Shown piece after piece: positions 7,983 to 61,487 of a stretch of 64,000 bases of DNA (its first letter is position 1; every line of letters starts with the position of its first letter). Under the pieces are notes generated by a model that saw only the letters and a list, made by a program, of their open reading frames with translations, did not search any database and had not been told where the DNA came from. The DNA lies in sequence record NZ_LC586267.2, one strand, 5' to 3'. Source of the DNA: a plasmid. Made by a program: the position numbers and the translations under genes.

Positions 7983-8020
7983 GGAGTCGCCTCAGAAAAC
8001 GGAAAATAAAGCACGCTAAG
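7983..8020 (+). repeat. 38-bp terminal inverted repeat, Tn21-type (IRmer-like), outer end at 7983
   Basis: GGAGTCGCCTCAGAAAACGGAAAATAAAGCACGCTAAG; identical except one base to the IR at 61450-61487. Confidence 0.8.
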
Positions 8021-8036
8021 GCGTAGTTCCCTCGGG

Positions 8037-8471
8037 CTACACCGCGTCCGCACTGCGCGGTTCTTTCTTCCCTTGCAGTGACGCAATCAGCGGGCAGGAA
8101 ACGTTCCCCTTCCGCGCATGGCAGGCGCACACCAAATCAGACAGCACGGCCTCCATGCGCGCCAGGTCAGCCATCCTCTCGCGCACGTCCTTGAGCTTGT
8201 GCTCGGCCAGGCTGCTGGCTTCCTCGCAATGGGTGCCATCCTCCAGCCGCAGCAGCTCGGCGATCTCATCCAGGCTGAAGCCCAACCGCTGGGCTGATTT
8301 CACGAAGCGCACCCGCGTTACATCCGTCTCGCCATAGCGGCGAATGCTGCCGTAAGGCTTGTCCGGTTCCGGGAGCAAGCCCTTGCGCTGATAGAACCGG
8401 ATGGTCTCCACATTGACCCCGGCCGTCCTGGCGAAAACGCCAATGGTCAGGTTCTCCAAATTGTTTTCCAT
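8037..8471 (-). CDS. merR: MerR mercuric resistance operon regulator
   Basis: 144-aa [36 protein letters not shown]...; Cys82/Cys117/Cys126 context conserved. Confidence 0.95.
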
Positions 8472-8476
8472 ATCGC

Positions 8477-8507
8477 TTGACTCCGTACATAACTACGGAA
8501 GTAAGCT
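8477..8507. promoter_or_regulatory. mer operator/promoter (divergent PmerT/PmerR) with MerR dyad
   Basis: TTGACT - 19-bp spacer containing dyad CCGTACATAACTACGG - TAAGCT. Confidence 0.85.
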
Positions 8508-8542
8508 TAAGCTATCCAATTCAGATTCGAAAGGACAAACGT

Positions 8543-8893
8543 ATGTCTGAACCTCAAAACGGGCGCGGCGCGCTCTTCACTGGCGGGCTGGCCGCCATCC
8601 TCGCCTCGGCTTGCTGCCTCGGGCCGCTGGTTCTGATCGCCTTGGGGTTCAGCGGCGCTTGGATCGGCAACTTGACGGTGTTGGAACCCTATCGCCCCAT
8701 CTTTATCGGCGTGGCGCTGGTGGCGTTGTTCTTCGCCTGGCGGCGCATCTACCGGCCGTCAGCCGCCTGCAAACCGGGTGAGGTTTGCGCGATTCCCCAA
8801 GTGCGAGCTACTTACAAGCTCATTTTCTGGGGCGTGGCCGTGCTGGTTTTGGTCGCGCTCGGATTTCCCTACGTCGTGCCATTTTTCTATTGA
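8543..8893 (+). CDS. merT: MerT mercuric ion transport protein
   Basis: 116 aa from MSEPQNGRGALFTGGLAAILASACCLGPLVL; CC pair in first TM. Confidence 0.95.
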   Translation: MSEPQNGRGALFTGGLAAILASACCLGPLVLIALGFSGAWIGNLTVLEPYRPIFIGVALVALFFAWRRIYRPSAACKPGEVCAIPQVRATYKLIFWGVAVLVLVALGFPYVVPFFY

Positions 8894-8908
8894 TCACAGG
8901 AGTTCACC

Positions 8909-11309
<2,401 letters not shown>

Positions 11310-11496
11310 GTGGCCACGCCTTGCGCGGCAATCGGTGGAGTGTCTGATGTCATGCCCAAACCTCGCTTTGGTGCACACGAGTATTGAGCATAGTCGAGAT
11401 TGGTGCAGACGACTCCTGATATTGGGCTGTCAGGAGCCGTATGCACACCAGGCGTTACATCCAGTCAGATGGTGCGGTCGTCTTCTGAAAACGACA
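11310..11496. mobile_element. Fragment of Tn402/Tn5053-family transposon terminus (IRt-type end with subterminal repeats)
   Basis: GGTGCACACGAGTATTGAGCATAGTCGAGATTGGTGCAGA...GTGCGGTCGTCTTCTGAAAACGACA matches my recollection of the IRt-end region of Tn402-like elements; 25-bp IR at 11472-11496. Confidence 0.6.
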
Positions 11497-11670
11497 CGAA
11501 GCCTTGAATTTGTCAGGCTGAAATCTATGACCTTGGCAAGCATGTGTCAAAGAATGTGAAAGCGGACTCTATTCTGACGGCGCGGTGCGGCCTTGCCTGA
11601 CATCCAGTTAGGGTATACCCCATTCGGACACCGACTACACAACCTAAGGGCTTGCAGGCTGTCAGCAGGG

Positions 11671-11708
11671 CTTATCGTACGATTTTTTCCGTTTTCTCTA
11701 TGCCCCCC
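11671..11708 (-). repeat. 38-bp terminal IR, Tn501/Tn1721-type, right end of composite transposon (outer end 11708)
   Basis: Minus strand GGGGGGCATAGAGAAAACGGAAAAAATCGTACGATAAG; identical to 57704-57741; identity continues about 100 bp; followed by GATTT (11709-11713). Confidence 0.8.
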
Positions 11709-11880
11709 GATTTAATGTCGTTCTCGTACAGCTGCAGCAAGTCGTCGCGTGACGGTATGTACATGGGAGGTGATCTCCAGCTGGTTCTTAGCCCTAACGC
11801 ATATATACGTTAGGGCCTCACCGGCAGCAAGTCGCCTCGCCGGCAGCGGCCAGGCGGGGGCAACTGACGCCCTCCGGTTA

Positions 11881-12678
11881 TCAGTCGTCCCCGCCCGGCT
11901 GGGCATCAGCGTCGGGCGGCACTTCCACCAGCTCGCCGGCCTCAAGGAAACGTACGTCGCAGTCCACACAGAGCAGCCGCCCGCTAAGGCCTGGCTTGCC
12001 CCACACGTTCAACTTGCAGCTGGGACAGGTGTACTTGCGCTTGTTCTTCGGATCCTCAGCCGGCGTTGCCGGCTGGATCAGACCCGCAACAGTCAGTGCC
12101 GGTATGTCGATGGTCGGATCCTCGGGCTGGGGTAAAGGCTCCCCACCTGGCCCGTACAGCTGCGTTGCGGACATTGGCACCCGCTGGGTGACGATATCGA
12201 TCCAGGAAATCATGGCGCCGGTTGCGAGTAATTCGTCGCATGCCACATCGAAGGGACCGCCCTCGATGATGTAGTGCGTCATCTGCTGCCCGCACCGGCG
12301 CCCGCCAGGCTCACCCGTGTGCGAAGGCATCAGCCCGATGGCCTCCATTTTGTCGGCCCACTCGCGGTTGTGGTACCCGCCGCGAGACTTCTTCCCGAAG
12401 CAGTCCTGCCACTGGTGCGCCTGTTCATGCACCAGCGTGGACAGCGTTTGCTTGATGCTGCGATGCGCGAAGTAGGCGCAGTTCAGCGCGATTTCATCGC
12501 TCTTACCCGAGCCATTCCGGCGCAGGAAGCGCGATGGCGAGTAATAGCCGAAAGTGTTGGCCTTGCGCTGCAGGGTGAAGATGCAGCCGGGCAGCTGGCC
12601 ACCGTATAACCGATCATTGAACCAGTCGTACGCCCCCTCGATTTCGTCATAGAGCAACTGGCTTGGGGTTGCGGACAT
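11881..12678 (-). CDS. SprT-like zinc metalloprotease domain protein with C-terminal zinc ribbon
   Basis: HEQAHQWQ HExxH motif; CPSC...CVDC ribbon; ATG at 12678 with GGAGG RBS; ORF track extends to 12789. Confidence 0.6.
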   Translation of the reverse strand: MSATPSQLLYDEIEGAYDWFNDRLYGGQLPGCIFTLQRKANTFGYYSPSRFLRRNGSGKSDEIALNCAYFAHRSIKQTLSTLVHEQAHQWQDCFGKKSRGGYHNREWADKMEAIGLMPSHTGEPGGRRCGQQMTHYIIEGGPFDVACDELLATGAMISWIDIVTQRVPMSATQLYGPGGEPLPQPEDPTIDIPALTVAGLIQPATPAEDPKNKRKYTCPSCKLNVWGKPGLSGRLLCVDCDVRFLEAGELVEVPPDADAQPGGDD

Positions 12679-12808
12679 GCGGCCTCCATTTCTCGCACGC
12701 GAGAATCCCCCCTGCTGATCACTCGGCGTCAGGGGGGTGAACGTTACAGACATTGTAACCTGTATCGTACGATACAGGTTACACATCAAAAAAAGGGGGC
12801 AAGCCCCC

Positions 12809-13189
12809 TCACCGTCCTACTAAGTAGGCGACATACACGATGGCGGCGCCAAGCGCCGCACCAATCGATAGCAGAGCTACCGAGTACCCAACCGCCCGGC
12901 GCTCAGCCTGTGCTGTCACCAGGCTGGCCGCACTGCGGTTGATCTCATTCCCAATCCGCGCTGCCGCTTCGCGTCCTGCCTGCACCAGTGCGTTGCGCTG
13001 TTCTTCCATCATCGACTCGAAGTTCAGCTGCGTCTGCAGCAGGACTTTGCCTGCTGCATCGCGTACGGCTTCGGAAGTCTTCGCCGCCAGGTCGGCGTCG
13101 ACCTGTTCCAGGCGCCGCACGATGGCATCAAAGTCCTCCATCATTTGCGCGACCATCGCTTCGCGGGCCGTGGTTGGGTCCTTGGCCAT
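12809..13189 (-). CDS. Hypothetical protein with C-terminal TM segment (stbC position)
   Basis: 126-aa ORF downstream of ParA-like gene in same orientation. Confidence 0.35.
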   Translation of the reverse strand: MAKDPTTAREAMVAQMMEDFDAIVRRLEQVDADLAAKTSEAVRDAAGKVLLQTQLNFESMMEEQRNALVQAGREAAARIGNEINRSAASLVTAQAERRAVGYSVALLSIGAALGAAIVYVAYLVGR

Positions 13190-13192
13190 CGA

Positions 13193-13912
13193 TCACTTCC
13201 CCTTGCCGAACAGCGAGGCATATACCTGGTCAAGGTTGCGCGATGCGGACTTGGCCAGGCGCTGCGCGGAGATCATGCGCAGGGCGTGATCCTTTTCGGT
13301 TTCGTCCTTGGCATCGCGCAACTGGGCGCGATAGTCCGTGGAGTCCTCCAGTACCTGCGTGACGTTCATTTTCAGCGGGCGCAGGCGCTCGAAAATTTCG
13401 TTCGCGTACACCACAGCATCGCGCTTGAGGGTGAATTTCTTCTCGACTTCGTGGAAGCCGAACAGCGCCGCGAACGTCTGCGGGATATCGTCGGCATCAT
13501 CGATCTGGACTTTGTTGAAGACGACCAAGATCTTTTTCGCCGGCACGCCGAGCGCGGCCAGGGTCTTGATGGTGTTGATGGTATCGACCTGCTGCTTTTT
13601 CTCCGGCACTGCCGGCACCAGGAAGTAATCGATATCTTCGTGGGAGCCGTCGTACTGGCCCATGAACTTGAAGAAGTCTTCAACGTTGGATGCGCCAACG
13701 TCGACCACAACCTTGTCCTCGGTCAGCAGTACCTCGGACAGTTCGCCAAACTGTTTGCCCTTGAGGCGTTCAATTTCGGCTGCGGTGTCCGACGCACCGG
13801 CGTTGATGGTTTCAATTGCAAACCGCAGACCGCCGATACGGGGCCAAAGCAGGTTATCGGAGAGTGTGGTTTTTCCGGAGTTGCCGGTGAAATTCACGGT
13901 GACGGTTCTCAT
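13193..13912 (-). CDS. Putative P-loop NTPase (StbB/ParA-like plasmid stability ATPase, deviant Walker A)
   Basis: 239 aa, N-terminal VNFTGNSGKTT P-loop-like motif; operon position between StbA-like and small protein as in IncW stbABC. Confidence 0.45.
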   Translation of the reverse strand: MRTVTVNFTGNSGKTTLSDNLLWPRIGGLRFAIETINAGASDTAAEIERLKGKQFGELSEVLLTEDKVVVDVGASNVEDFFKFMGQYDGSHEDIDYFLVPAVPEKKQQVDTINTIKTLAALGVPAKKILVVFNKVQIDDADDIPQTFAALFGFHEVEKKFTLKRDAVVYANEIFERLRPLKMNVTQVLEDSTDYRAQLRDAKDETEKDHALRMISAQRLAKSASRNLDQVYASLFGKGK

Positions 13913-14382
13913 GTGCGTTTCCTTCTGCTGCGCGCTGCGCTTTCATATCGATCCAAGTCCGAGGCGTTTTGATCGTCCCCGGGATTCATGAGCCTGCTCA
14001 ACTCAGCCGGCCCCAAATGGGGCCGTTCGTCCGCGTCATGGCTCGGTTCTGTATCGTACGATACACCTCCTTCCTGTTCCGGCTCGACCTGCCGCGCTGG
14101 TTCCTCAAAATGTTGCGGCACTGGTGCTGGGCTTGCAGTCTTTGCCTGGTTTCCACGTTGGGCCTTGCGGTATCGGTACAGGTAGCTCTTGAGCGTATCC
14201 ATACTGACCTCGATACCTTGCTCCTTGAGCACATCCAGAATCGCCTGGCGTCGTACACCTGCCCTCAGCTGCTTCTCGATCACTGGCATGACCTTGCGTA
14301 TTTTCGCTGCCTTTGTCACTGGCTCAACCGCCATCAGTGCCTTCTCGATATCCTTGCCTGCCATTTTGCACCCTACCTGCAC
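13909..14382 (-). CDS. Putative DNA-binding protein (StbA-like) adjacent to oriT region
   Basis: 157 aa, basic N-terminal region with HTH-like segment; first gene of operon reading away from oriT-like repeats; C-terminal third low complexity and contains a palindrome, may not be coding. Confidence 0.4.
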   Translation of the reverse strand: MQVGCKMAGKDIEKALMAVEPVTKAAKIRKVMPVIEKQLRAGVRRQAILDVLKEQGIEVSMDTLKSYLYRYRKAQRGNQAKTASPAPVPQHFEEPARQVEPEQEGGVSYDTEPSHDADERPHLGPAELSRLMNPGDDQNASDLDRYESAARSRRKRT

Positions 14383-14518
14383 CCATATTGCATTTACCCT
14401 GTATCCTACTCACCCCCTACCTGTAGTCAAGCTATACCCCTTCTGCACTCAATCTACAGCCATACAGCACCCTTTCTGCCTACCCTTGTCCTCCGCTCGC
14501 TACGGCCTTCGGCCTAGG

Positions 14519-14642
14519 CACTAAAAACGCCCTTAACAAGAGCATCAATTTCGACCCTTAACAGGGTCAAAATCTCAATGCACTAAAAACGCCCTTAACA
14601 AGAGCATCAATTTCGACCCTTAACAGGGTCAAAATCTCAATA
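14519..14642. repeat. Two tandem 62-bp direct repeats each containing inverted repeat GACCCTTAACAGGGTC (putative StbA/centromere-like or oriT accessory sites)
   Basis: CACTAAAAACGCCCTTAACAAGAGCATCAATTTCGACCCTTAACAGGGTCAAAATCTCAAT repeated twice. Confidence 0.6.
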
Positions 14643-14858
14643 CACAACACGCACCTCCCTGGCGGGAGGTGGAAGCCGCGTCAGCCTTGAGCCTGAGCCG
14701 CTTTTCCAGAATTTACTACGTGATACGTTTGTATTACAAAGTATGCTTGCAGTGCAGATAAATCAAGGTTTTTGTGTGATACATTTGCATTACAGCGAAT
14801 GTGCGTTACCTTTGGGCATGTCAAACCCCAATTTTCAAGGTGCATTTGAGGGAGCAAC
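14643..14858. promoter_or_regulatory. Putative oriT / trwA promoter region
   Basis: 8-bp stem IR CACCTCCC-TGGC-GGGAGGTG at about 14650-14675; two related AT-rich repeats GTGATACRTTTGYATTACA; lies between stbA-like gene and trwA-trwB-trwC as in R388. Confidence 0.4.
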
Positions 14859-15242
14859 GTGGGCAAAACAGTACCCATTCGATTCAACGACGAGCAGCTG
14901 TCCAGGGTTGAAGAAGCGGCGGCACTCGCTGGCTATAAGCACCTATCGAGCTACATCCGCGACCGGGTGCTGGCCACAGACAAAGGTGGCCGGCAGGTGG
15001 ATATGGACAGCTGGGCCGAGCAGCAACAGATCCTTGGCTTGCTCGAAACCATCACCCAGGAACAGGCACGGAGCAGAACCATTCAGGCCATCGTGGTCTA
15101 TCTGCTGCGTCAAGGAACGGCACAGGGCAAGGTCAATGAGCTGCGCGCTCATCTCAAGCACCTGGTCAGCAGCGAGGATGCACTCGCAGCACTTTTGCCC
15201 GACCTGGCCGAGGACATTGAACGTCTATCAGGAGAGGACTGA
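14859..15242 (+). CDS. Relaxosome accessory protein (TrwA-like ribbon-helix-helix)
   Basis: 127 aa; N-terminal KTVPIRFNDEQLSRVEEAA RHH-like; immediately upstream of T4CP and relaxase. Confidence 0.55.
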   Translation: MGKTVPIRFNDEQLSRVEEAAALAGYKHLSSYIRDRVLATDKGGRQVDMDSWAEQQQILGLLETITQEQARSRTIQAIVVYLLRQGTAQGKVNELRAHLKHLVSSEDALAALLPDLAEDIERLSGED

Positions 15243-16792
15243 TGCACAAACAAGAGGTTGATTCCGCCGCTATGACAGCGGGCTTTGGTTTGCCGATCGC
15301 TGGCTGGTTGGCCGGCACCCAGCTGGCTCAGCTGCCACTGGCGCCGTTCCCTGCAGCGTTCAAAGAAACACTGCACAACGGCTGGCACGAACCTCCAGTG
15401 CTGGGTGCCACCATTGCCACCTCGGTTGTTGCTGCAGGCTTGTGTTACTACCTGTACGAATACTGCGACGACGGGTTCAGAGGCGAACGGTTCCAGCAAT
15501 GGCTGCGTGGTTCTCGGATTCGTAACTGGCATTTCGTGGAGCGCAAGGTCAACGCTCGCAATGCCAAGACCAACCGTGAGCGCCGCAAAAAGGGGTTGGA
15601 GAATGCCAAGCCAATCATGGTCGGCAAGCTGCCGATGCCGCTGCACCTAGAAGACCGCAACACCATGATCTGCGCGTCCATCGGTGCCGGTAAGTCCGTG
15701 ACCATGGAAGGCATGATCGCATCGGCATTACGGCGCAACGACCGCATGGCCGTGGTCGATCCCAACGGGACCTTTTACTCCAAGTTCAGTTTCAAGGGCG
15801 ACTACATTCTCAATCCCTTTGATGCGCGCTCTGCAGGCTGGACCATCTTCAACGAGATCCGTGGCGTTCACGATTTCAACCGCATGGCTAAATCGATCAT
15901 TCCGCCGCAGGTAGACCCCAGCGACGAGCAGTGGTGTGCCTACGCTCGGGACGTACTGTCCGACACCATGCGCAAGCTGATGGAAACGAACAACGCCAAC
16001 CAAGATACGCTGGTCAACCTTCTGGTTCGCGAAGATGGCGACACCATCCGGGCGTTCTTGGCGAACACCGACTCCGAAGGCTATTTCCGTGACAACGCGG
16101 AGAAAGCCATCGCAAGCATCCAGTTCATGATGAACAAGTACATCCGCCCTCTTCGCTACATGGGTAAAGGTGACTTTTCGATTTATCGCTGGGTGAATGA
16201 TCCCGACGCCGGCAACCTGTTCATTACCTGGCGGGAGGATATGCGCGACACCATGCGCCCGCTGGTGGCCACCTGGATCGATACCATCTGCGCAACCATC
16301 CTCAGCTCCGAGCCAATGACCGGTAAACGTCTGTGGCTGTTTCTCGATGAGCTGCAATCGCTCGGTAAATTGGAGAGTTTCGTTCCCGCTGCGACCAAGG
16401 GCCGGAAACATGGCCTGCGCATGGTCGGCAGTCTGCAAGACTGGTCCCAGCTCAACGCAAGTTATGGCCGGGACGACGCGGACACGCTGCTGTCGTGCTT
16501 TCGTAACTACGTCATTCTGGCGGCGGCAAACGCCAAGAACGCCGAAATGGCCAAGGAAATCTTGGGCAATCAGGAGGTCAAGCGCTTCCGCAAGTCTTGG
16601 ACTGCAGGGCGCATGACGAGGGCCGAGGAAATCAAGCTGGAACCGGTCGTGATGGATTCGGAGATCTCGAACCTCAATGACTTGGAAGCCTACGTCAAGT
16701 TTGCCGAGGACTTCCCCATTACCAAGATCAAGACGCCTTACGTCGATTACAAAGAGCGGGCGCCGGCAATCGTCATTGGCCAAGCAGCTTGA
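15242..16792 (+). CDS. Type IV coupling protein (TrwB/VirD4 family)
   Basis: 516 aa; N-terminal TM, Walker A ICASIGAGKS, Walker B LWLFLDELQSLG. Confidence 0.9.
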   Translation: MHKQEVDSAAMTAGFGLPIAGWLAGTQLAQLPLAPFPAAFKETLHNGWHEPPVLGATIATSVVAAGLCYYLYEYCDDGFRGERFQQWLRGSRIRNWHFVERKVNARNAKTNRERRKKGLENAKPIMVGKLPMPLHLEDRNTMICASIGAGKSVTMEGMIASALRRNDRMAVVDPNGTFYSKFSFKGDYILNPFDARSAGWTIFNEIRGVHDFNRMAKSIIPPQVDPSDEQWCAYARDVLSDTMRKLMETNNANQDTLVNLLVREDGDTIRAFLANTDSEGYFRDNAEKAIASIQFMMNKYIRPLRYMGKGDFSIYRWVNDPDAGNLFITWREDMRDTMRPLVATWIDTICATILSSEPMTGKRLWLFLDELQSLGKLESFVPAATKGRKHGLRMVGSLQDWSQLNASYGRDDADTLLSCFRNYVILAAANAKNAEMAKEILGNQEVKRFRKSWTAGRMTRAEEIKLEPVVMDSEISNLNDLEAYVKFAEDFPITKIKTPYVDYKERAPAIVIGQAA

Positions 16793-20287: not shown

Positions 20288-20920
20288 TCAAAAACCTTTG
20301 CCGCCGTAGCCTTTCGGTTGGTGTGAGGGGGTTTTTAGTTCGTGCTGCAGCTGGCGTTCTTGCACGATGCCAACGCCCGAGAACGGGTAACGGATCGACA
20401 GATCCTTGCCCTGGTGCAACAACCCAGCCTTGGCACTGCTCAAGGCCGCTCGCTCATGGGCAATATGGATAGTCTTCTGTCCGTCACTGACGGCCTGAAT
20501 CACCTGGTTATTGTGGAAGGCGACTATCTTGCCGTCGTAGGTCTTGCCCTGCTCAGCTGCCTTGATGGCCGGCATATCCATTGGCTTGGCCATTGCCATC
20601 GCTTCACCGGGTTTACCAGAGGCCGCGCCGGATTGCTCAGCCTTGCGCAGCTCCAGCGCATCCTTGAACGAGGCTTTGAAGTCTGCAGCGCCTGGCATAT
20701 TGTCGAACGGCAGATCCTTGTAATACTGCGTGCCCTCCTTGCCAACCTGCGCAAAGACACGAGCGGCTTGCCCGCCCTGTTGAACAGTCATCACGGATTT
20801 GTCGGAAAGCTCGGCCTTGAACCAGGCTGCGCCCGCCAGCTTTGCGTCGGTGAACGTTTCCGGTTCCCTGCCCTTTTGGAACAGCTGGTAAGTGGTGGTC
20901 TGATCAGTTTGCTTGTCCAT
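20288..20920 (-). CDS. Hypothetical conserved plasmid protein
   Basis: 210-aa ORF, good coding statistics, no recognisable motif. Confidence 0.4.
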   Translation of the reverse strand: MDKQTDQTTTYQLFQKGREPETFTDAKLAGAAWFKAELSDKSVMTVQQGGQAARVFAQVGKEGTQYYKDLPFDNMPGAADFKASFKDALELRKAEQSGAASGKPGEAMAMAKPMDMPAIKAAEQGKTYDGKIVAFHNNQVIQAVSDGQKTIHIAHERAALSSAKAGLLHQGKDLSIRYPFSGVGIVQERQLQHELKTPSHQPKGYGGKGF

Positions 20921-21891: not shown

Positions 21892-22809
21892 TCAATTGAT
21901 GATCTGGACAAATGACGGGGTGGCTTGCTGCTGTTCGGCAACAGGCTGCGCCTCGGCTTGTTCAAAGTGTTGTGGCGCAGGCTGATCGAAGCGCTTGAAT
22001 TCCCGCTTCGGAATATCAGCCTCGGCATCGGTGTTGAGGTGGACTTGGATCTGCGGCTTGCTGGCAGTCTCAGTCTTCGCGGCAGCAACGGCTTGGCCAT
22101 TGTCGTCAGTGAAGGTCAGCCATGGACCTTCCTGCTGTTCAGAGGCCCTACGAGCGCGCTGCGGCGCTTTTCGGGCAGGGGAGCTAGCTGCAACCACGGA
22201 AATCGGCTCAGCGCCTTCTGCACCCTCTACAGCCGGCACAATCGGATCCTCAGCAGTGGGGTTCAGGGCGCGGTGAACCACTTTCTCGACGTAAGACATT
22301 TCGCCAGGTCGATCCGGGCGGAAGCCACGCAGCTCGTTGCCGCTGTAGTACATCGAAAAGGCCTTCAACAGCGCCTCTTGCTTGTCACTACTGGTCGTAA
22401 GCGCCTGCTTGTAATACTCCACCAGCAAGTTGCTGATGGCCTGCAGGTTGCGGCATGGCTCGAACACATCCTGATAGCTCAGCCCGCGTGCACGCATGTT
22501 GGTGACTAGCAACTGGCCAAGGCCCATGGCATAACGCTTGCCGTCCCGTTCCAACTGCTCGGCAGTGGCGATGGCTTCGCTCAAGGACTGAGGTTGCCGC
22601 TGCAGGTGAGTGCCAACCACGCCGATTGCGTAAGGGTTGAAGGTAGACTCGTTGCCGATCAACGCCTTGAGCGTGGACGGGTGAACGGTCGGCGCGCACT
22701 TGGCGGCAAGTTCGGAAAACCGGGTCGGCTGTGCATCTTCGGCATGAACCATGGCAGACGCGCAGACACTGGCCAGCAGCGCCAGGGTGAACTTAGGCAG
22801 CTTTCGCAT
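21892..22809 (-). CDS. virB1: Lytic transglycosylase (VirB1/TrwN-like)
   Basis: Signal peptide then SLT motifs NESTFNPYAIG and AMGLGQL. Confidence 0.75.
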   Translation of the reverse strand: MRKLPKFTLALLASVCASAMVHAEDAQPTRFSELAAKCAPTVHPSTLKALIGNESTFNPYAIGVVGTHLQRQPQSLSEAIATAEQLERDGKRYAMGLGQLLVTNMRARGLSYQDVFEPCRNLQAISNLLVEYYKQALTTSSDKQEALLKAFSMYYSGNELRGFRPDRPGEMSYVEKVVHRALNPTAEDPIVPAVEGAEGAEPISVVAASSPARKAPQRARRASEQQEGPWLTFTDDNGQAVAAAKTETASKPQIQVHLNTDAEADIPKREFKRFDQPAPQHFEQAEAQPVAEQQQATPSFVQIIN

Positions 22810-23827
22810 AGTGAACCTCCGTGATGATGCGTCGGCCATCGAAGCCGTATTCCCACTGGATAACGACATCGATCAGATGCCGGGAGAACTCGATCAGCTG
22901 GTTTTTGCTCATGTCAGCACCGCCACGCGATGCCATTGATGCCAGGCGGTCGAACATGAGATCCGGCGAGTCGGCGTGGATAGAACTCATCGTGCCGCTG
23001 TGACCGGTGTTCATCAGTTCAAGGAAGGGGAACGCCTCGCCGCCACGCAGCTCGCCCATAATTGCCCGGTCAGGGGTCAGACGAAGAATCGATTCCAGGT
23101 GATCGAATGGCGTGACACGGGCCTTGCCCTGGCCACCTCGCGAATAGATCAGGTTCACCACGTTCCCGCCCGCTGGGCGCAGTTCGCGGGTGTCCTCAAT
23201 GGTGATTACTCGCTCGCCATTGTTGCCGTCCACATGCTGCAGCAACTCGTTGAGGAAAGTGGTTTTGCCGGCATTGGTACCGGCAGAAACCATGATGTTC
23301 TTGCGCGCCTTGACGATGCCCTTGAAGAACTCTTTCCAGCGCTTGGCCCGATACAGTTCAACCAGGTGATCATCGCTGTACTGGCCATGATCACGTGGCT
23401 GGTTGATGAAGTCGAAAGCACCGGAAGCCTCGTATTGATCGAGGGTAATTTGCTTCCGCCCTGGTTTACGGATACAGACGATACCGCCGATGTGCTGCTC
23501 AACAGCCGGGGCCAGGACGATCTGGACGCGGTAGTCGCCCCGCTCGTTGTCCGGGACGTTGTCGTCCAGATTGATTGGGATACGCCCCGACAGGATTGGC
23601 GTGTAGGCGCTCACTTCCTGGTCAGTGTGGGCGGCAATCAGGCTGGCCAGCGATTTGATCAGGGGGAGCGTTACACCTTGAACCGGAACCGGACGCATGA
23701 ACCGGCTACTGCGGTAGCCGGCCCATACGTTGTCTGGACCGTTGATAGCGATCTCTGTCACTTCCGGGTCATCCAACATGCCAGCAAGCGGACCCAGTTT
23801 TGTGCGAAAGGATGCAATCTCAGACAT
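22793..23827 (-). CDS. virB11: VirB11/TrwD traffic ATPase
   Basis: 344 aa; Walker A SAGTNAGKTT, RAIMGELRGGEA, His box. Confidence 0.9.
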   Translation of the reverse strand: MSEIASFRTKLGPLAGMLDDPEVTEIAINGPDNVWAGYRSSRFMRPVPVQGVTLPLIKSLASLIAAHTDQEVSAYTPILSGRIPINLDDNVPDNERGDYRVQIVLAPAVEQHIGGIVCIRKPGRKQITLDQYEASGAFDFINQPRDHGQYSDDHLVELYRAKRWKEFFKGIVKARKNIMVSAGTNAGKTTFLNELLQHVDGNNGERVITIEDTRELRPAGGNVVNLIYSRGGQGKARVTPFDHLESILRLTPDRAIMGELRGGEAFPFLELMNTGHSGTMSSIHADSPDLMFDRLASMASRGGADMSKNQLIEFSRHLIDVVIQWEYGFDGRRIITEVHYAKAA

Positions 23828-43844: not shown

Positions 43845-44330
43845 CTGGGGGAAACGAGCCAGCGCGCCACGGGCGTGCCCCCATCCGGGGGGCGGCTGTC
43901 GTGAACCAAGCCCCGGCCAGAAGCACGCCGGGTCTTGGCCCTTCGGGCTTCCATCCTCACGCCTCCGGCCTTCGGCCTGCGCGCTCCGCTTGCCGGTCGT
44001 TCCATGGCAACCACTGCGGCTAGCTCAGCAACCATCGGTAGGAAGCGGACGCCCCAATGGCCTATCCGCCACCAGGCCTTGCCTGCAAGGGGCTTTCGCG
44101 GCATATCCTCACTCGCTGCGCTCCCTGCGGTATTCCACGGTCCCCTTGCACGCGGCCTGGCTCTGGATAGTCCTGGCTTACCGCGTCCTACCGAAGGCTG
44201 CCGAGCAGATCCACCCAGCGGTGGCGCGCTTCCATTCCCAAAGAGCAGGGCGGCATCCGCTTCGCGGCTGCTGCTTTGAAAAGCGTTTGTTTCCCGCGCC
44301 CAAACGCTCGGCATTAAAGCAGATCTGCAA
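43845..44330 (+). repeat. Copy 1 of about 480-bp noncoding GC-rich repeat element
   Basis: Near-identical to 52262..52715; begins GCGTGCCCCC...GGCGGCTGTCGTGAACCAAGCC; contains GCCC-TTCG-GGC and GGCC-TTCG-GCC tetraloop hairpins; ends ...GGCATTAAAGCAG. Confidence 0.7.
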
Positions 44331-52261: not shown

Positions 52262-52715
52262 GCCCCCTCCGGGGGGCGGCTGTCGTGAACCAAGCCCCGG
52301 CCAGAAGCACGCCGGGTCTTGGCCCTTCGGGCTTCCATCCTCACGCCTCCGGCCTTCGGCCTGCGCGCTCCGCTTGCCGGTCGTTCCATGGCAACCACTG
52401 CGGCTAGCTCAGCAACCATCGGTAGGAAGCGGACGCCCCAATGGCCTATCCGCCACCAGGCCTTGCCTGCAAGGGGCTTTCGCGGCATATCCTCACTCGC
52501 TGCGCTCCCTGCGGTATTCCACGGTCCCCTTGCACGCGGCCTGGCTCTGGATAGTCCTGGCTTACCGCGTCCTACCGAAGGCTGCCGAGCAGATCCACCC
52601 AGCGGTGGCGCGCTTCCATTCCCAAAGAGCAGGGCGGCATCCGCTTCGCGGCTGCTGCTTTGAAAAGCGTTTGTTTCCCGCGCCCAAACGCCCGGCATTA
52701 AAGCAGCTCGGTAGA
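52262..52715 (+). repeat. Copy 2 of about 480-bp noncoding repeat element
   Basis: Near-identical to 43845..44330, same orientation; third partial copy (about 105 bp) at 56795-56900. Confidence 0.7.
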
Positions 52716-52765
52716 GCCGCCAAGCGTACGGCGCAGAAAAAAGCATGATTTCTCGCACGCGAGAA

Positions 52766-53310: not shown

Positions 53311-53334
53311 TCCAGACGGAAAAGGAGATTCATC

Positions 53335-53892: not shown

Positions 53893-53939
53893 ACACCCGC
53901 AAGACCAGGCCCGGCGCAATGTCGGGCTTTTTTCTGCGC

Positions 53940-54082
53940 GACAAACGGTCAAATTAGATTTGACCAATAGTTGACTTAGGTTCGAGCCTTTGCGATACTA
54001 ACCCTGTCGAAGCAATTCCGCCTCGACAGCCTGGAACCAGCGGCGGCAACCGCTCCAGGCAAATCGCGAAGGAGATTCAAAA
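53940..54082 (+). promoter_or_regulatory. CUP-like repeated promoter cassette 5
   Basis: GGTCAAATTAGATTTGACCAATAGTTGACT-N17-GATACT, hairpin, SD. Confidence 0.65.
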
Positions 54083-54910: not shown

Positions 54911-54968
54911 CAGCCCCAGGCCGGGCGCCCAGCGCGCCCGGTCTGCACCATGCAGGGAGATCGCAGCC

Positions 54969-55391
54969 ATGCAAAAAGTTTTCTATGTACCCGGCCAAAC
55001 CGCAATCATCGACTATGCCCGCCAGATCGGCCCCAATGCTTGGGCCGCTCGCGCAACCTGGCTGATGCTGCCAGAGATCCAGGTAAGGCACCCCGGCGCT
55101 GTGCTTGGCGATGAAGTAGGCTTTCTGCAAGCGCAGGAAGCCGCCCACGGCACCCAGCCGGCGCGCATCACCGAAACCCGGTATGACTTCGCGCTTAGCC
55201 GCGCTCAGGTGCTCGACTACAACGCCGGCGAGGCCGGCGATTCGTTCATACTGCAAGCCCCCGAGGTTGGCGACCTGGTGCGCGTGTACGCCCGTTCAAG
55301 CGGTCGTTACTGGACGTTCCTAGCGCTGCCGACCATCACGCATTGCGAGATCTGGCAGCGGATTCACCAGCAGGGGGCCGCGGCTGATTGA
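54969..55391 (+). CDS. Hypothetical protein
   Basis: 140 aa. Confidence 0.35.
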   Translation: MQKVFYVPGQTAIIDYARQIGPNAWAARATWLMLPEIQVRHPGAVLGDEVGFLQAQEAAHGTQPARITETRYDFALSRAQVLDYNAGEAGDSFILQAPEVGDLVRVYARSSGRYWTFLALPTITHCEIWQRIHQQGAAAD

Positions 55392-55414
55392 CTACCGACA
55401 CTAGGAGCTGATGA

Positions 55415-55728
55415 ATGCAGCCGATGTACACCAAAGAAGAATGGAAGAAGGTTGCGCCCCTGTTTGCTTCCAAGCGCCTGGCCATCTCGACCGTCGAGGT
55501 GGCCAAGGCCGTTCTGGTCGATGGCCAGCGCATCACCGACGTAGCCGAGGCCAGGGGGATGACCAAGCAGACCGCGCACGCAGCGGTAAAGCGTGTGCGG
55601 AAAATCCTGGAAGAGCAGGGCGCCGGCGAGCTGGTCCCCGTCCTGGTGTGGCTGCCCCCGAGTTGGCCGAACAGGTGCGGGAAATGGCCAAGCCATTCCC
55701 CCAGCCTGCCGCCCAAAAATCGAAGTGA
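55415..55728 (+). CDS. KorA-like transcriptional repressor; frameshift in C5 run near 55655
   Basis: VEVAKAVLVDGQRITDVAEARGMTKQTAHAAVKRVRKILEE resembles IncP KorA HTH; restoring one C yields about 105-aa protein ending PFPQPAAQKSK. Confidence 0.5.
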
Positions 55729-55749
55729 AGAATCACAAGGAGAGACGAA

Positions 55750-56769
55750 ATGTCGTCTGATGAACTCATTTTCCAGGCTGACCGGATTCACTCAGTTTCC
55801 ATTCATAACGTCACCCTGGTTGCTAACCAGATCAATGAGGACGGGAAAACGGCTGACCTGGTTATCGAGTACCAGGGAAAGCAGCACACGTTGCGCGCCG
55901 CTCATTACGTGAATGAGAGTGACGTAGGCAAAGTGGGCTATGTACTGCCAGCGCATTTTGCGTCGTCGGCAGCAGGGAATGGCACCATGATTTTCCGGGC
56001 CTACCAGGATCAAAGCCTGCGCCGCGTGTACGAGCTGGACACCACGAACGATGAATTTCAGATGGTGCCGCTTAACCATGGGAAGTGGCCGCACCACCGC
56101 GCTCATTTGACATGCGGTTGGCGGTGCGACAGTCGACCTACCGGCTTTCTCGCACCGGCAGGGCTTGTGCCTGGTGCCAAAGGCGAGTTCGTGCCGGATG
56201 AAACAGAAGTTGTTTCCGTACGCATTCCGCCTGAATTCGAATGGGAAGGACGCCGGCATCAGATGAAACCTGCGGAACTGCTCGAAAGCTTTATTGGCGA
56301 CCTGGCCGGCATCCAGAACTTTGGCAACAGGCCCCGGGCTGACCGCTTCGGCAGCAACGGCAGCGACGAACGCATGCTGGCTGATCACTGGCTGGAGCGG
56401 GCGCATGGTATGAAAGCTATAGACCCGGACCAGATGAATCAGCAGGCCGAGGAAGCAGAGGAATGGGATGCACAGCAGGACGAATGGTCGGAGCTGCTGG
56501 GCGAATACGCTGATCGAGGCGGTGATCCTCGCCAGTTGCTGGAAGCCGTTGACGGTGTGCTGACCAAGCTGGACGAGTTGGGGCCTGATTTTGTGCTGGA
56601 TCTGCAGGCCGAGGTTGAAGCGACTCAAACCCTGCCCAAACTCACCGAGTTGAATCCCTCGCAGCTGGCGTACCTTGAGAAATGGTTGGCCAGCAACGGC
56701 CCGAACAACCTCCTAAAGTGGCCAGGTTGGCATGACGCCCGAGTTGGCCAGGCTCCGAAAGACGTTTGA
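55750..56769 (+). CDS. Hypothetical protein
   Basis: 339 aa, acidic C-terminal half. Confidence 0.4.
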   Translation: MSSDELIFQADRIHSVSIHNVTLVANQINEDGKTADLVIEYQGKQHTLRAAHYVNESDVGKVGYVLPAHFASSAAGNGTMIFRAYQDQSLRRVYELDTTNDEFQMVPLNHGKWPHHRAHLTCGWRCDSRPTGFLAPAGLVPGAKGEFVPDETEVVSVRIPPEFEWEGRRHQMKPAELLESFIGDLAGIQNFGNRPRADRFGSNGSDERMLADHWLERAHGMKAIDPDQMNQQAEEAEEWDAQQDEWSELLGEYADRGGDPRQLLEAVDGVLTKLDELGPDFVLDLQAEVEATQTLPKLTELNPSQLAYLEKWLASNGPNNLLKWPGWHDARVGQAPKDV

Positions 56770-57271
56770 TTCTCCCTCTTGTGCGTGCCCCTTCGGGGGC
56801 GGCTGTCGTGAACCAAGCCCCGGCCAAAAGCACGCCGGGTCTTGGCCCTTCGAGCTTCCATCCTCACGCCTCCGGCCTTCGGCCTGCGCGCTCCGCTTGC
56901 CGTTTGTATCGTACGGCCGAGGGGGCAACTCCTTACCCGGCCTCACGGCCGGGATGGCCCATCCCACCTGGTAATCAAGATCGAGGGCGAGCCGGCCAGC
57001 AGGCCGGGCGCTGCAGCAGCTCGCGTGGGAGCAAGTGCATGGCTCGGAAATCGCCCTGCAGTTGCCCACCGCCCAGGCGATGATGCGCACCTGGTCCGTG
57101 GACAACTGCACCGTTCGCTCTGGCCCTTGTTGGGGCCCCGCTCACTGGACGATTTTTGTGTGTGGGCTGGGCGACTGCGCAAGAGCGGCCTTCGGCGACC
57201 AAGGGCTGCGCCCTTGGATCCGCAAGCCCAACGCGCCGGCCTCCGAATGGATGCCCTAACGCATATATGCG

Positions 57272-57631
57272 TTAGGGCTTGAACCGGCGATGTGCTACGC
57301 AGTCATCGAAGTCATCCCGGTAGCGGACCCGGATCTCTGTCATGGCCATGACCAGGGCTTGCACCATCGGCTCCAGAGTCGCCTCCAGCTGATCCAGGAT
57401 CTCAGGACCGACCTTTGATTTGTTGGCGGCTGTGCGCCCTTCCGTTGCGAATTTCTCCAGCGCAATCCGTACGTCCACCCCTCTCCCGAGCAGCTTGGTG
57501 CAGAGGTTTTCTGCCAGGGTCGGAGTTATGTCCAGCCCGTTCAGCCGTTCCACCTGCAGGAATGAAAACACCAGGTCGCGCTTGCAGCGCTTGTGCGCTG
57601 CACCGAGTTCCGCGCCGCAGTGGCTGGCCAT
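57272..57631 (-). CDS. Hypothetical protein adjacent to transposon insertion point
   Basis: About 120 aa from MASHCGAELG; ORF track extends into IR to 57760; palindrome CCCTAACGCATATATGCGTTAGGG at 57254-57277 overlaps its 3' end. Confidence 0.3.
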   Translation of the reverse strand: MASHCGAELGAAHKRCKRDLVFSFLQVERLNGLDITPTLAENLCTKLLGRGVDVRIALEKFATEGRTAANKSKVGPEILDQLEATLEPMVQALVMAMTEIRVRYRDDFDDCVAHRRFKP

Positions 57632-57703
57632 CTGGCGCAAGCTGCCTTCCCGATTTTCCAGGTATCGGCGGTAACCATCGAGCCGGTCGGCGTACGCCGA
57701 TTT

Positions 57704-57741
57704 GGGGGGCATAGAGAAAACGGAAAAAATCGTACGATAAG
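57704..57741 (+). repeat. 38-bp terminal IR, Tn501/Tn1721-type, left end of composite transposon (outer end 57704)
   Basis: GGGGGGCATAGAGAAAACGGAAAAAATCGTACGATAAG preceded by GATTT (57699-57703). Confidence 0.8.
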
Positions 57742-57744
57742 CCC

Positions 57745-57920
57745 TGCTGACAGCCTGCAAGCCCTTAGGTTGTGTAGTCGGTGTCCGAATGGGGTATACC
57801 CTAACTTGGCGTCAGACCATCCGGCGCTAAATCGTCAGAATAGAGTTGCCTTCCGAATTGATTGACATACGCCGTCAAGGGTCATAGATTTCTTCCTGAC
57901 ACATTTCCCTCAGGAGGATA
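57745..57920. promoter_or_regulatory. Putative res site of Tn21-subgroup transposon
   Basis: AT-richer region between IR and tnpR with GTCAG/CTGAC-type repeats; standard position. Confidence 0.4.
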
Positions 57921-57922
57921 CC

Positions 57923-58483
57923 TTGCACGGTCAGCGCATCGGTTACGTCCGCGTCAGCAGCTTCGACCAGAACCCAGAACGGCAGCTCGAACAGATCCAG
58001 GTGGATAAAGTGTTCACCGACAAGGCGTCGGGCAAGGACACACGGCGGCCCGAACTGGAACGGCTGCTCGCCTTCGTGCGCGAAGGCGACACGGTCGTGG
58101 TGCACAGCATGGATCGTCTGGCGCGCAACCTCGACGACCTGCGCCGCCTGGTGCAGGGCCTCACCCAGCGCGGCGTACGCATCGAGTTCCTTAAGGAGCA
58201 TTTGACCTTCACCGGCGAGGACTCGCCGATGGCGAACCTGATGCTGTCGGTAATGGGCGCGTTCGCCGAGTTCGAACGCGCCTTGATCCGCGAGCGGCAG
58301 CGCGAGGGCATCGCGCTCGCCAAGCAGCGCGGGGCCTACCGTGGCAGGAAGAAATCCCTGTCGTCTGAGCGTATTGCCGAACTGCGCCAACGTGTCGAGG
58401 CTGGCGAGCAAAAGACCAAGCTGGCTCGTGAATTCGGAATCAGTCGCGAAACCCTGTATCAATGCTCGAGAACGGATCAGTAA
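57923..58483 (+). CDS. tnpR: TnpR resolvase (Tn21/Tn1721 subgroup)
   Basis: 186 aa MHGQRIGYVRVSSFDQNPERQLEQ..., about 85 percent identical by eye to Tn1721 TnpR. Confidence 0.95.
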   Translation: MHGQRIGYVRVSSFDQNPERQLEQIQVDKVFTDKASGKDTRRPELERLLAFVREGDTVVVHSMDRLARNLDDLRRLVQGLTQRGVRIEFLKEHLTFTGEDSPMANLMLSVMGAFAEFERALIRERQREGIALAKQRGAYRGRKKSLSSERIAELRQRVEAGEQKTKLAREFGISRETLYQCSRTDQ

Positions 58484-58485
58484 AT

Positions 58486-61453
58486 ATGCCACGTCGTTCA
58501 ATCCTGTCCGCCGCCGAGCGCGAAAGCCTGCTGGCGTTGCCGGACACCAAGGATGAGTTGATCCGTCACTACACGTTCAGCGAAACCGACCTCTCCATCA
58601 TCCGGCAGCGGCGCGGCCCGGCCAACCGGCTGGGCTTCGCCGTGCAGCTCTGTTACCTGCGCTTTCCTGGTGTCATCCTGGGCGTCGATGAGCCGCCGTT
58701 TCCGCCCTTGTTGAAACTGGTCGCCGACCAGCTCAAGGTCAGCGTCGAAAGCTGGGACGAATACGGGCAGCGGGAGCAGACCCGGCGCGAGCACCTGGTC
58801 GAACTGCAAACGGTGTTCGGCTTCCAGCCCTTTACCATGGGCCACTACCGGCAGGCCGTCCAGTTGCTGACCGAGATGGCCTTGCAGACCGACAAGGGCA
58901 TCGTGCTGGCCAGCACCTTGATCGAGCACCTGCGGCAGCAGATCGGTCATTCTGCCTGCCCTCAACGCCGTCGAGCGGGCGAGCGCCGAAGCAATCACCC
59001 GCGCCAACCGGCGCATCTACGATGCCTTGGCCGAACCGCTGTCGGACGCGCATCGCCGCCGCCTCGACGATCTGCTCAAGCGTCGGGACAACGGCAAAAC
59101 GACCTGGCTGGCCTGGCTGCGCCAATCGCCCGTCAAACCGAATTCGCGGCACATGCTGGAACACATCGAACGCCTCAAAGCGTGGCAGGCGCTCGACCTG
59201 CCTTCTGGCATCGAGCGGTCGGTGCACCAGAACCGCCTGCTCAAGATCGCCCGTGAGGGTGGCCAGATGACGCCCGCCGACCTGGCCAAGTTCGAGGCGC
59301 AGCCACGCTATGCCACCCGGGTGGCGCTTGCCATCGAGGGCATGGCCACCGTCACCGACGAAATCATCGACCTGCACGACCGCATCCTGGGCAAGCTGTT
59401 CAACGCCGCCAAGAACAAGCATCAGCAGCAATTCCAGGCGTCCGGCAAGGCGATCAACGCCAAGGTGCGGTTGTTCGGCCGCATCGGCCAGGCGCTGATC
59501 GAGGCCAAGCAGGCGGGCCGCGATCCGTTCGCCGCCATCGAGGCCGTCATGTCCTGGGATGCCTTCGCCGAGAGCGTCACCGAAGCGCAGAAGCTTGCGC
59601 AGCCCGAGGACTTCGATTTCCTGCACCGCATCGGCGAAAGCTACGCCACGCTGCGCCGCTACGCGCCGGAATTCCTTGCCGTGCTCAAGCTGCGGGCCGC
59701 TCCCGCCGCGAAGGACGTGCTCGACGCCATCGAGGTGCTGCGCGGCATGAACAGCGACAACGCCCGCAAGGTGCCCGCCGACGCGCCGACCGAGTTCATC
59801 AAGCCGCGCTGGCAGAAGCTGGTCATGACCGACACCGGCATCGACCGGCGCTACTACGAACTATGCGCGCTGTCGGAGATGAAGAACGCGTTGCGTTCCG
59901 GCGACATCTGGGTGCAGGGGTCGCGCCAGTTCAAGGACTTCGAGGACTACCTGGTGCCGCCCGCGAAATTCGCCAGCCTCAAGCAGGCCAGCGAATTGCC
60001 GCTGGCCGTGGCCACCGACTGCAACCGGTACCTGAACGACCGGCTGACGCTGCTGGAAACACAGCTTGCCACCGTCAACCGTATGGCGACGGCCAACGAG
60101 CTGCCGGACGCCATCATCACCGAGTCAGGCTTGAAGATCACGCCGCTCGACGCGGCGGTACCCGACACCGCCCAAGCGCTGATCGACCAGACGGCAATGA
60201 TCCTGCCGCACGTCAAGATCACCGAACTGCTGCTGGAGGTGGACGAATGGACGGGCTTCACTCGGCATTTCGCGCATCTGAAATCGGGCGACCCGGCCAA
60301 AGACAAGAACCTGTTGCTGACCACGATCCTCGCCGACGCGATCAACCTGGGCCTGACCAAGATGGCGGAGTCTTGCCCCGGCACGACCTACGCCAAGCTG
60401 GCTTGGCTGCAAGCCTGGCACATCCGCGACGAAACCTACGGGGCGGCGCTGGCCGATCTGGTCAACGCACAGTTCCGCCATCCCTTCGCCGAGCACTGGG
60501 GCGACGGCACCACCTCATCGTCGGACGGCCAGAACTTCCGCACCGGCAGCAAGGCCGAGAGCACCGGCCACATCAACCCGAAATACGGGAGCAGCCCAGG
60601 GCGGACGTTCTACACCCACATTTCTGACCAGTACGCGCCATTTCACACCAAGGTCGTGAACGTCGGCGTGCGCGATTCGACCTACGTGCTCGACGGCCTG
60701 CTGTACCACGAGTCCGACTTGCGGATCGAGGAGCATTACACCGACACGGCGGGCTTCACCGATCACGTCTTCGCCCTGATGCACCTCCTGGGCTTCCGCT
60801 TCGCGCCGCGCATCCGCGACCTGGGCGACACCAAGCTCTACATCCCGAAGGGCGACGCCGCCTATGACGCGCTGAAACCCATGATCGGCGGCACGCTCAA
60901 CATCAAGCACGTCCGCGCCCATTGGGACGAAATCCTGCGGCTGGCCACCTCGATCAAGCAGGGCACGGTGACGGCCTCCCTGATGCTCCGAAAGCTCGGC
61001 AGCTACCCACGCCAGAACGGCCTGGCCGTGGCGCTCCGCGAGCTGGGCCGCATCGAGCGCACGCTGTTCATCCTGGACTGGCTGCAAAGCGTGGAACTGC
61101 GCCGCCGCGTGCATGCCGGCCTGAACAAGGGCGAGGCGCGCAATGCGCTGGCCAGGGCAGTGTTTTTCAACCGCCTGGGTGAAATCCGCGACCGCAGTTT
61201 CGAGCAGCAGCGCTACCGGGCTAGCGGCCTCAATCTGGTAACGGCTGCCGTCGTGTTGTGGAACACGGTCTATCTGGAACGGGCTGCGCACGCGCTGCGT
61301 GGCAACGGCCATGCCGTTGATGACGCGCTGTTGCAGTACCTGTCGCCGCTCGGTTGGGAGCACATCAACCTCACCGGCGATTACCTCTGGCGCAGCAGCG
61401 CCAAGATCGGCGCGGGCAAGTTCAGGCCGCTACGACCGCTGCAACCGGCTTAG
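58486..61453 (+). CDS. tnpA: TnpA Tn3-family transposase; +1 frameshift near 58945
   Basis: N-terminus [31 protein letters not shown] in ORF 58462..; remainder in ORF 59027..61453 ending RPLRPLQPA overlapping IR. Confidence 0.9.
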
Positions 61454-61487
61454 CGTGCTTTATTTTCCGTTTTCTGAGGCGACCCCC
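61450..61487 (-). repeat. 38-bp terminal IR Tn21-type (IRtnp), outer end 61487
   Basis: Minus strand GGGGTCGCCTCAGAAAACGGAAAATAAAGCACGCTAAG overlapping tnpA stop. Confidence 0.85.

Follow-up and report, generated by a model that had tools for sequence, protein, structure and literature searches.

The stretch analysed here, 64,000 nucleotides (nt) of plasmid sequence from record NZ_LC586267.2 (hereafter the window), holds a mer unit and a transposition (tnp) unit at the two sides of a 46-kb plasmid backbone (11709-57703), together with a segment of DUF417 and AraC genes, the insertion sequence ISPst3 and a class 1 integron that runs past the window end (64000) and continues from position 1. 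An original prediction from the same sequence had described four 38-bp Tn3-family inverted repeats (IRs), a Tn21-type pair with outer ends toward the integron segment and a Tn501-type pair with outer ends toward the backbone, so that the mer and tnp units would each be bounded by one IR of either type. We located the copies by IR search, and all four exist in the orientation described. Searching with the Tn21 tnpA-end IR returned only two copies in the window, with none expected by chance: one beside merR (GGAGTCGCC...CTAAG; outer end 7983, merR inside) and one at the tnpA end (outer end 61486, the 3' end of tnpA inside), which match each other at 37 of 38 positions (Table 1). The latter had been placed at 61450-61487, one base off, at an end that five consecutive C make ambiguous. 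The second type, GGGGGGCATAGAGAAAACGGAAAAAATCGTACGATAAG, is present in two identical copies (38/38) with outer ends at 11708 and 57704, and the DNA that these ends enclose on the side away from the backbone is called the island below.

Calling the second pair Tn501-type is only approximately correct. The Tn501 IR had no match in the window at up to three mismatches, the label was dropped on this ground, and the terminal IR does not place the island in Tn501. The closest relative, compared by hand, is the tnpA-end IR of the Tn6603-like transposon on pSTY (35/38); the second-type and Tn21-like IRs agree at 26/38 positions. Against the IRs of Tn501 and Tn1721, the agreement is 29-30/38 (29/38 for Tn501). 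The window also has more transposon ends than the four, namely the ~38-bp IRs (11048-11086 and 11271-11309) of a 262-bp miniature Tn3-type element and two 25-bp IRs of Tn402/Tn5053 type (6912-6936 and 11472-11496).

An inverted-repeat scan of the window returned a 202-nt pair (11507-11708 and 57704-57905), of which the 38-bp repeat described earlier at the second pair forms the outermost part. The two arms are 100% identical for their leading 103 nt and 70% identical (75/107) from there through res, and the identical stretch ends just beyond the centre of res site I (GGGGT-AT-ACCC; centre at 57796-57797 and 11615-11616). Both arms are bordered by GATTT. When 57200-57703 was joined to 11714-11900, which removes the island and one copy of GATTT, an open reading frame (ORF) of 160 codons was restored, and this reconstructed empty site was colinear with two insertion-free related plasmids (93.5% identity over ~691 nt), in both of which the ORF is intact. 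Because the arms are identical and the 5-bp duplication is a true one that splits the ORF, the island is one IR-bounded Tn3-family transposon, in an IncP-9-like conjugative Pseudomonas plasmid. The 5' part of the ORF lies at low coordinates and the 3' part at high coordinates of the same strand, indicating that the molecule is circular and that the transposon spans the window ends. In both pJUPA4295 and CP080283, 681 bp of ISPst3 istA lie between the matches to window positions 64000 and 1; with this addition the island (57704 to the window end, ~681 bp outside it, and 1-11708) would measure ~18.7 kb and the replicon ~64.7 kb.

Table 1. Features of the island and its borders in the window
Feature	Position	Strand	Remarks
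Target-site duplication GATTT, left copy	57699-57703
Target-site duplication GATTT, right copy	11709-11713
Interrupted 160-aa backbone ORF, 5' part	11709-11755	-
Interrupted 160-aa backbone ORF, 3' part	57272-57703	-
Left arm	57704-57806	+	38-bp IR (57704-57741), 57-bp spacer, res site I; 100% identical to right arm
Right arm	11606-11708	-	38-bp IR (11671-11708), 57-bp spacer, res site I
Hybrid res	57742-57922	+	site I left half from arm; site I right half and sites II-III of Tn5051/TnAO22 type
tnpR	57923-58483	+	186-aa serine resolvase, TTG start, appears intact
tnpA	58486-61453	+	Tn3-family transposase, Tn5051/TnAO22 type; 99.9% identical to intact 988-aa gene in CP081967
Tn21-like IR, tnpA end	61449-61486	-	genuine end of Tn5051-type module; same IR ends the pLM16A1 transposon
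DUF417/RclC-like gene	61641-62159	+
AraC/RclR-like regulator	62188-63033	-
ISPst3 istA, 5' part	63190-64000	+	runs off window end; ~681 bp missing before position 1
ISPst3 istB and right end of IS	1-912	+	istB 1-804
Class 1 integron	1264-6936	-	orf5, sul1, qacEdelta1, aac(6')-31 (3241-3795), aadA1 (3875-4666), blaVIM (4754-5554)
intI1	5721-6734	+	799 bits
IRi	6912-6936		25/25 match
218-aa serine recombinase gene	7323-7979	+	stop codon 3 bp from Tn21-like IR
Tn21-like IR, merR side	7983-8020	+	part of Tn5053-type mer module
mer block	8037-11047		merR (8037-8471, -), merT (8543-8893), merP (8909-9184), merF (9187-9429), merA (from 9429, 3' end replaced)
Miniature Tn3-type element (kappa-gamma/TIME-like), 262 bp	11048-11309		~38-bp IRs; at merA/tniA deletion joint
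Tn5053 tniA-end remnant	11310-11496	-	100% identical to Tn5053 on pSTY; 25-bp IR 11472-11496, outer end 11496
Second res, inverted relative to the first	11497-11670	-	site I centre 11615-11616

The tnp unit has two parentages that meet at the centre of res site I. Inward from this centre, where ACCCTAAC follows the central AT, and through to the final base of the Tn21-like IR, the window agrees at 99.7% with the 8.2-kb mer transposon that pLM16A1 carries; this transposon has the order IR-merRTPADE-urf2-res-tnpR-tnpA-IR and the target duplication AATTT. Left of the centre, arm sequence takes over. The tnp unit is therefore a site I recombinant between an arm and a Tn5051-type transposition module. 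TnAO22 and Tn5051 have a TTG-start tnpR and Tn21-like IRs that differ by 1 bp (PMC2663772), a description that the pLM16A1 transposon fits. Compared with the intact gene of CP081967, tnpA of the window has one additional base (A at 58942, outside any homopolymer), a 1-bp insertion that disrupts it. TnpA is only 72.5% identical to the transposases of the Tn6603-like transposon of pSTY and of P. mucoides, the IRs of which are similar to that of the arm.

Of the features of a Tn3-family transposon, the island has terminal IRs of ~38 bp that start with GGGG and agree at 38/38 positions, the 5-bp target-site duplication, and a resolution system consisting of the apparently intact tnpR and two res regions in inverted orientation. 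It lacks a functional DDE transposase of its own that matches the terminal IRs. Since the sole tnpA is frameshifted and belongs to the clade that matches Tn21-like IRs, not the arms, the island in its present state is probably not self-mobile. Two IR-bearing terminal copies flank unrelated cargo, and the outer IRs were used as the ends, as in TIME-COMP-like composites.

The mer unit is of different origin. Its first 3066 nt, IR included (7983-11048), are 99.97% identical to Tn5053 on pSTY, and the homology to Tn5053 begins exactly at the outer base of the IR at 7983. Tn5053 on pSTY has, in this order, a 25-bp IR, 39 bp, a 38-bp Tn21-like IR and merR; Tn5053 itself therefore possesses a Tn21-like IR beside merR, and the IR at 7983 came with the mer module. 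At the other side of the unit, what is left is one 25-bp IR with 187 bp of the tniA end; the other 25-bp IR and the tni genes are gone. The remaining Tn402-type IR borders directly, at 11497, on site III of the second res, and over sites III-II (11497-11594) this res shares 98% identity with that of the pSTY Tn6603-like transposon. Transposons of the Tn5053 family are res-site hunters, and the res of Tn6603 is an experimentally confirmed target, in which the merR-side end lies toward tnpR (PMC7765201); the orientation of the mer unit at the second res agrees with this published insertion. The mer unit thus appears, by comparison with pSTY, to be a truncated Tn5053 relic in the position of a res-hunter insertion, not a functional member of the family. 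The 262-bp element shows no target duplication at its flanks. It fits the description of the 262-bp kappa-gamma/TIME elements (PMC7765201, PMC4133298), and similar sequence was found in 509 plasmid records, with ~262 nt at 99% identity among the matches listed.

The two Tn21-like IRs thus belong to separate modules, one of Tn5051 type (tnp) and one of Tn5053 type (mer), and they are therefore not partners but ends of unrelated modules that face each other by chance. Their flanks differ (AAGAA and CTTCA), with no common target duplication. A large Tn21-like transposon spanning 7983-61486 was rejected: the flanks are unlike, the pair encloses the backbone, the mer module is of Tn5053 type, and the interval does not qualify as a Tn21/Tn5051 unit transposon. 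The two supposed hybrid units are likewise not recombinant mer transposons, one being a Tn5051/TnAO22-type tnp module joined to an arm at the res site I centre and the other carrying the IR of a Tn5053-type mer module.

Joints of the outer base of the IR at 7983 were read in different replicons, with the 25-bp IR plus 39 bp of Tn5053 in one case and with the 218-aa recombinase gene in another. Overlapping match coordinates suggest that in some plasmids (hits H6-H14 and H106-H110) the DUF417 gene appears as a third partner; that joint seems to differ by one base from the joint between the tnpA-end IR and DUF417 in the window. If the DUF417 joint holds, the merR-side Tn21-like IR probably served as an end in the past.

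In the segment between the Tn21-like IRs, the integron shows the hallmarks of class 1, with intI1, the cassettes blaVIM, aadA1 and aac(6')-31, the 3' conserved segment and IRi; the genes of the conserved segment (qacEdelta1, sul1 and orf5) were placed by the annotation of the near-identical region of pJUPA4295. The cassette order is blaVIM-aadA1-aac(6')-31 in the window and VIM-60-aadA1-aac(6')-31-aadA1, with an extra aadA1, in pJUPA4295 (3236-6410). IRi lies 386 bp upstream of the gene for the 218-aa serine recombinase, the DNA in between (within 6937-7979) containing an AT-rich stretch, and the arrangement resembles one more res-hunter insertion beside a resolvase gene.

Two repeats were also noted in the backbone. 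Near-identical palindromic hairpins (CCCTAACGCATATATGCGTTAGGG) stand at 11790-11819 and 57250-57279, on either side of the interrupted 160-aa ORF, and may be terminators or a repeated backbone motif. A sequence of ~100 bp occurs three times (43893-43993, 52277-52377 and 56800-56900), and one P. lundensis segment matched all three at 89%.

Six sister plasmids with a near-identical backbone (CP081967, CP087162, CP086065, LC685593, MN961673 and CP046873) all match the right arm of the window up to the res site I centre and no further. In four of the six records, an arm copy has the same coordinates (20707-20711). Reading through both arms in CP087162 and CP086065 showed GATTT beside each, and the left arm, the one read in CP081967, is also flanked by GATTT. 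The cargo of the sister plasmids is unrelated to that of the window (tetA plus an integron, KPC-2, or merTPCA plus tni). In LR822050, the junction on the tnp side is present together with 7 bp of this flank. At the site I centre, at least five different right halves follow one and the same left half. Site and duplication are the same while cargo differs, and the transposition into the backbone is therefore probably older than the present cargo.

Two further plasmids carry parts of this arrangement. On an unrelated backbone, pJUPA4295 has the same cargo at 99.9% identity except for the cassette array, without the arms and with both joints at res site I centres. The arm on the tnp side of CP080283 is joined to the opposite backbone flank (AAATC). 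We considered this plasmid as a clean inversion isomer of the window and rejected the idea on full comparison, which revealed only one arm and a deletion of 1.5 kb of backbone (56213-57703); CP080283 is compatible with an inversion across the arms but is not a clean case. In the sister plasmid pCCBH28525_KPC (708-2114 and 13661-15065), both arms lead into the same res right half over the first 115 nt compared inside each arm. Inside one arm its annotation shows a copy of blaKPC-2, and inside the other, KPC fragments on the opposite strand, a layout suggestive of a long inverted duplication within the twin-arm frame.

Ends of the arm type also occur outside this plasmid lineage. A 759-bp non-autonomous mini-element consists of an arm-type IR, 57 bp, a full res, a 79-aa ORF and a partner IR that agrees at 36/38 positions. 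It is 100% identical in P. lundensis (3779-4537) and pHNGDW697-2 (15113-15871), with a TGAAA duplication in the latter, and in pVIM_Pse-KSS14 (22286-23044), where ends and spacing were compared, the two end sequences also stand 759 bp apart. An element that bears the arm IR together with a duplication of its own shows that this IR is an active Tn3-family end, and the 759-bp element resembles a portable res site that comes without a resolvase gene. In P. mucoides P154a (contig NZ_JACOPW010000010.1), two inverted arms have matching 5-bp flanks (AGATT). One of them leads into a 3.8-kb res-tnpR-tnpA unit that ends in a Tn1721-like IR, that is, a unit with unlike ends, and the other is 99.8% identical to the left arm and the start of tnpR of the window. 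With the island, this makes at least two insertions of a twin-arm structure. In the genome collection, the exact arm IR always stands at a res-proximal end, and except for the 759-bp element and the P. mucoides ends, a search there for an intact transposon with the arm IR at both ends recovered no simple unit with a demonstrable duplication. A related IR, GGGGCGAATAGAG..., adjoins in many Pseudomonas genomes the same inner sequence as the tnpA-end IR of pSTY. In the plasmids of P. veronii and Pseudomonas sp. TMW 2.1634 with arm-like sequence, neither tnpA nor tnpR adjoined the arm match.

On this evidence, we think it likely that there was one ancestral twin-arm insertion, the interior of which was then rebuilt by recombination at res site I and by other processes. 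The first step is recorded directly: the twin-arm element transposed once into the 160-aa ORF and duplicated GATTT. The mobilising transposase would have been of the Tn6603/Tn4653/Tn501/Tn1721 clade and would probably have acted in trans, since the arm IRs resemble those of this clade and the window encodes no such enzyme. Recombination at the res site I centre would then have joined the left arm to the Tn5051/TnAO22-type res-tnpR-tnpA module; the joint is visible, and its position suggests catalysis by a resolvase. A Tn5053-type mer transposon, a res-site hunter, would have inserted beside the right-hand res, a structure that can be read in the window and whose place in the order of events is presumed, and would later have lost the region from the 3' part of merA through tniA, next to the 262-bp element, as well as the merR-side 25-bp end. 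The class 1 integron lies beside another serine-recombinase gene, and ISPst3 marks a further joint. The mismatched pairing of the IRs, from which the original prediction had started, is then a by-product of modular reassortment at res.

A bolder extension of this account, which we regard as tentative, is that twin inverted arms of IR plus res site I, fixed at a single position in an IncP-9-like plasmid lineage, serve as an exchange platform for whole resistance islands with inward-facing res sites at their borders. A rare fusion between two res sites would be followed by ordinary resolution at the second res pair. If true, this would be a natural recombinase-mediated cassette exchange of multi-kilobase islands between replicons, and it would explain why the same cargo is found at res site I centres in the unrelated pJUPA4295.

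Several rival histories were weighed against one insertion with a rebuilt interior. The whole ~18.7-kb island could have moved with its present cargo as a unit via the two outer IRs, which was the second option of the original prediction. This would account for the GATTT duplication and the restored ORF, arm-type ends are active elsewhere, and the principle has been shown experimentally with TIME-COMP elements (PMC4133298). However, the six sister plasmids match the right arm at this place, CP087162 and CP086065 have both arms with the duplication, and their unrelated cargo is joined at the res site I centre; repeated insertion at one 5-bp site is less economical than one insertion followed by a change of cargo, and the same cargo stands without arms in pJUPA4295. 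We therefore consider a move of the complete island unlikely: the outer pair did move a multi-element structure, as composite transposition had implied, but the present cargo probably arrived after that transposition.

The modules could also have been swapped by RecA-dependent homologous recombination within similar res and IR sequences. The arms offer 103 bp of perfect homology, the res regions are ~70% identical, and the tnp-side arm on the opposite flank (AAATC) in CP080283 is compatible with flipping by any recombination system. Homologous exchange would scatter its breakpoints, whereas all the joints examined lie no more than 1-2 nt from the site I centre, even with little or no similarity on the cargo side, and at least five right halves as well as the backbone halves of pJUPA4295 are joined at this centre. 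A RecA route is accordingly rated a little lower still than the movement of the island as a unit.

The first option of the original prediction, that two inversely oriented related mer transposons (Tn21-type and Tn501-type) exchanged halves, is very improbable: it would produce the reciprocal arrangement of two IR types and the two related, inverted res regions, but it predicts two hybrids each with mer and tnp, whereas the window has one tnp module and a single mer operon (merRTPFA), which is of Tn5053 type, has a Tn402-type 25-bp IR end beside res and contains a TIME-like element, and the 100% identity of the outer arms for 103 nt fits two copies of one arm. Two other models were rejected. 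Intramolecular replicative transposition with inversion predicts inverted copies of the duplication and two identical full transposons; the duplication is direct, and the ends that flank the integron segment are unlike, one being a tnpA end and the other a merR end. Single-step integration, res by res, of a circle of mer transposon and integron segment predicts direct res repeats with res pointing away from mer, and the second res is inverted.

A number of observations weigh against the history of one insertion and later rebuilding. A transposase from the clade that should recognise the arm IRs is missing from the window, and the right-hand joint of CP087162 meets sequence unlike a res half-site. 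Wild-type Tn3-family resolvases strongly prefer direct res repeats on one molecule, and the intermolecular or inverted-site events that this history implies are rare or non-canonical. The joints of the 218-aa recombinase gene and of DUF417 with the Tn21-like IRs, outside both of these IRs, have no target duplication and fall outside what this history accounts for. The closure of the circle, with its ~681 bp, was drawn from two relatives, the P. mucoides element is known from its two ends alone, and the extra base at 58942 of tnpA, which could mark a pseudogene, could also be a sequencing error. A complete and unique order of events could not be rebuilt.

Through the island, a conjugative Pseudomonas plasmid has an integron with a VIM metallo-beta-lactamase, and telling the true ends of the island from scars shows how this carbapenemase region can and cannot move. 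The island also offers a natural example of res site I as a seam for the reassortment of Tn3-family modules, with ends derived from small res-bearing elements. A limited literature search returned no name for the island; the pMOS94 papers concern a different plasmid lineage, and the ISPst3 and Tn3 papers other elements. What may be undescribed is the family of res-bearing arms and its fixed position on a lineage of IncP-9-like resistance plasmids.

Among known systems, TIMEs are non-autonomous elements with 38-bp Tn3-family IRs that are mobilised in trans and generate 5-bp duplications; foreign DNA that lies between two copies can be moved by them in the manner of an IS-driven composite, and one TIME derivative is a portable res system (PMC4133298). 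The window contains a 262-bp TIME-like element, and the arms of the island match the 759-bp res-bearing mini-element. Unlike the TIMEs reported, with IRs of Tn5563/Tn5044 type, the arms have IRs nearer to those of Tn6603, Tn1721 and Tn501, and each arm ends in a res site, which gives two inverted res sites. Tn6603 and Tn4653, Tn501-related transposons of Pseudomonas (PMC7765201), are close in the pSTY comparison of both the arm IR (35/38) and res sites II-III (98%), and Tn4653 sits on the IncP-9 plasmid pWW0 as the island sits on an IncP-9-like one. The examined pSTY copy was named solely because pSTY carries Tn6603 (PMC7765201); this copy lacks the 465-bp orf between tnpR and res. However, Tn6603-type tnpA, tnpR and cargo genes are missing from the window, and the arm IR is only 57 bp from res.

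With Tn5051/TnAO22, mer transposons of the Tn21 subgroup, the island shares the right half of res site I, the TTG-start tnpR, tnpA and the Tn21-like IR, but it has a foreign arm in place of the merRTPADE-urf2 half and the mer-end IR, and its tnpA is frameshifted. Tn5053 is matched almost perfectly by merRTPFA with the 38-bp IR (99.97%) and by the 187 bp of the tniA end (100%), which lies beside res in the expected orientation; unlike Tn5053, the mer unit has no merD, merE, tniRQB, most of tniA, or merR-side 25-bp IR with its 39-bp spacer, and a TIME occupies the internal deletion. Tn1721 reportedly has three IRs, and Tn501 is said to have an internal Tn21-like end; both are precedents for Tn21-subgroup elements with more than one IR type, as scars of nested or fused elements. 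In these elements the additional IR is internal to a unit whose outer ends match each other and which has a cognate transposase of its own, unlike the arrangement in the island. All components and processes invoked here are known, namely Tn21-subgroup mosaics at res, res hunters, TIMEs and their composites, and class 1 integrons; current views are not overturned, and the known behaviour of TIMEs, res hunters and Tn21-subgroup mosaics is extended to a clinically relevant plasmid lineage.

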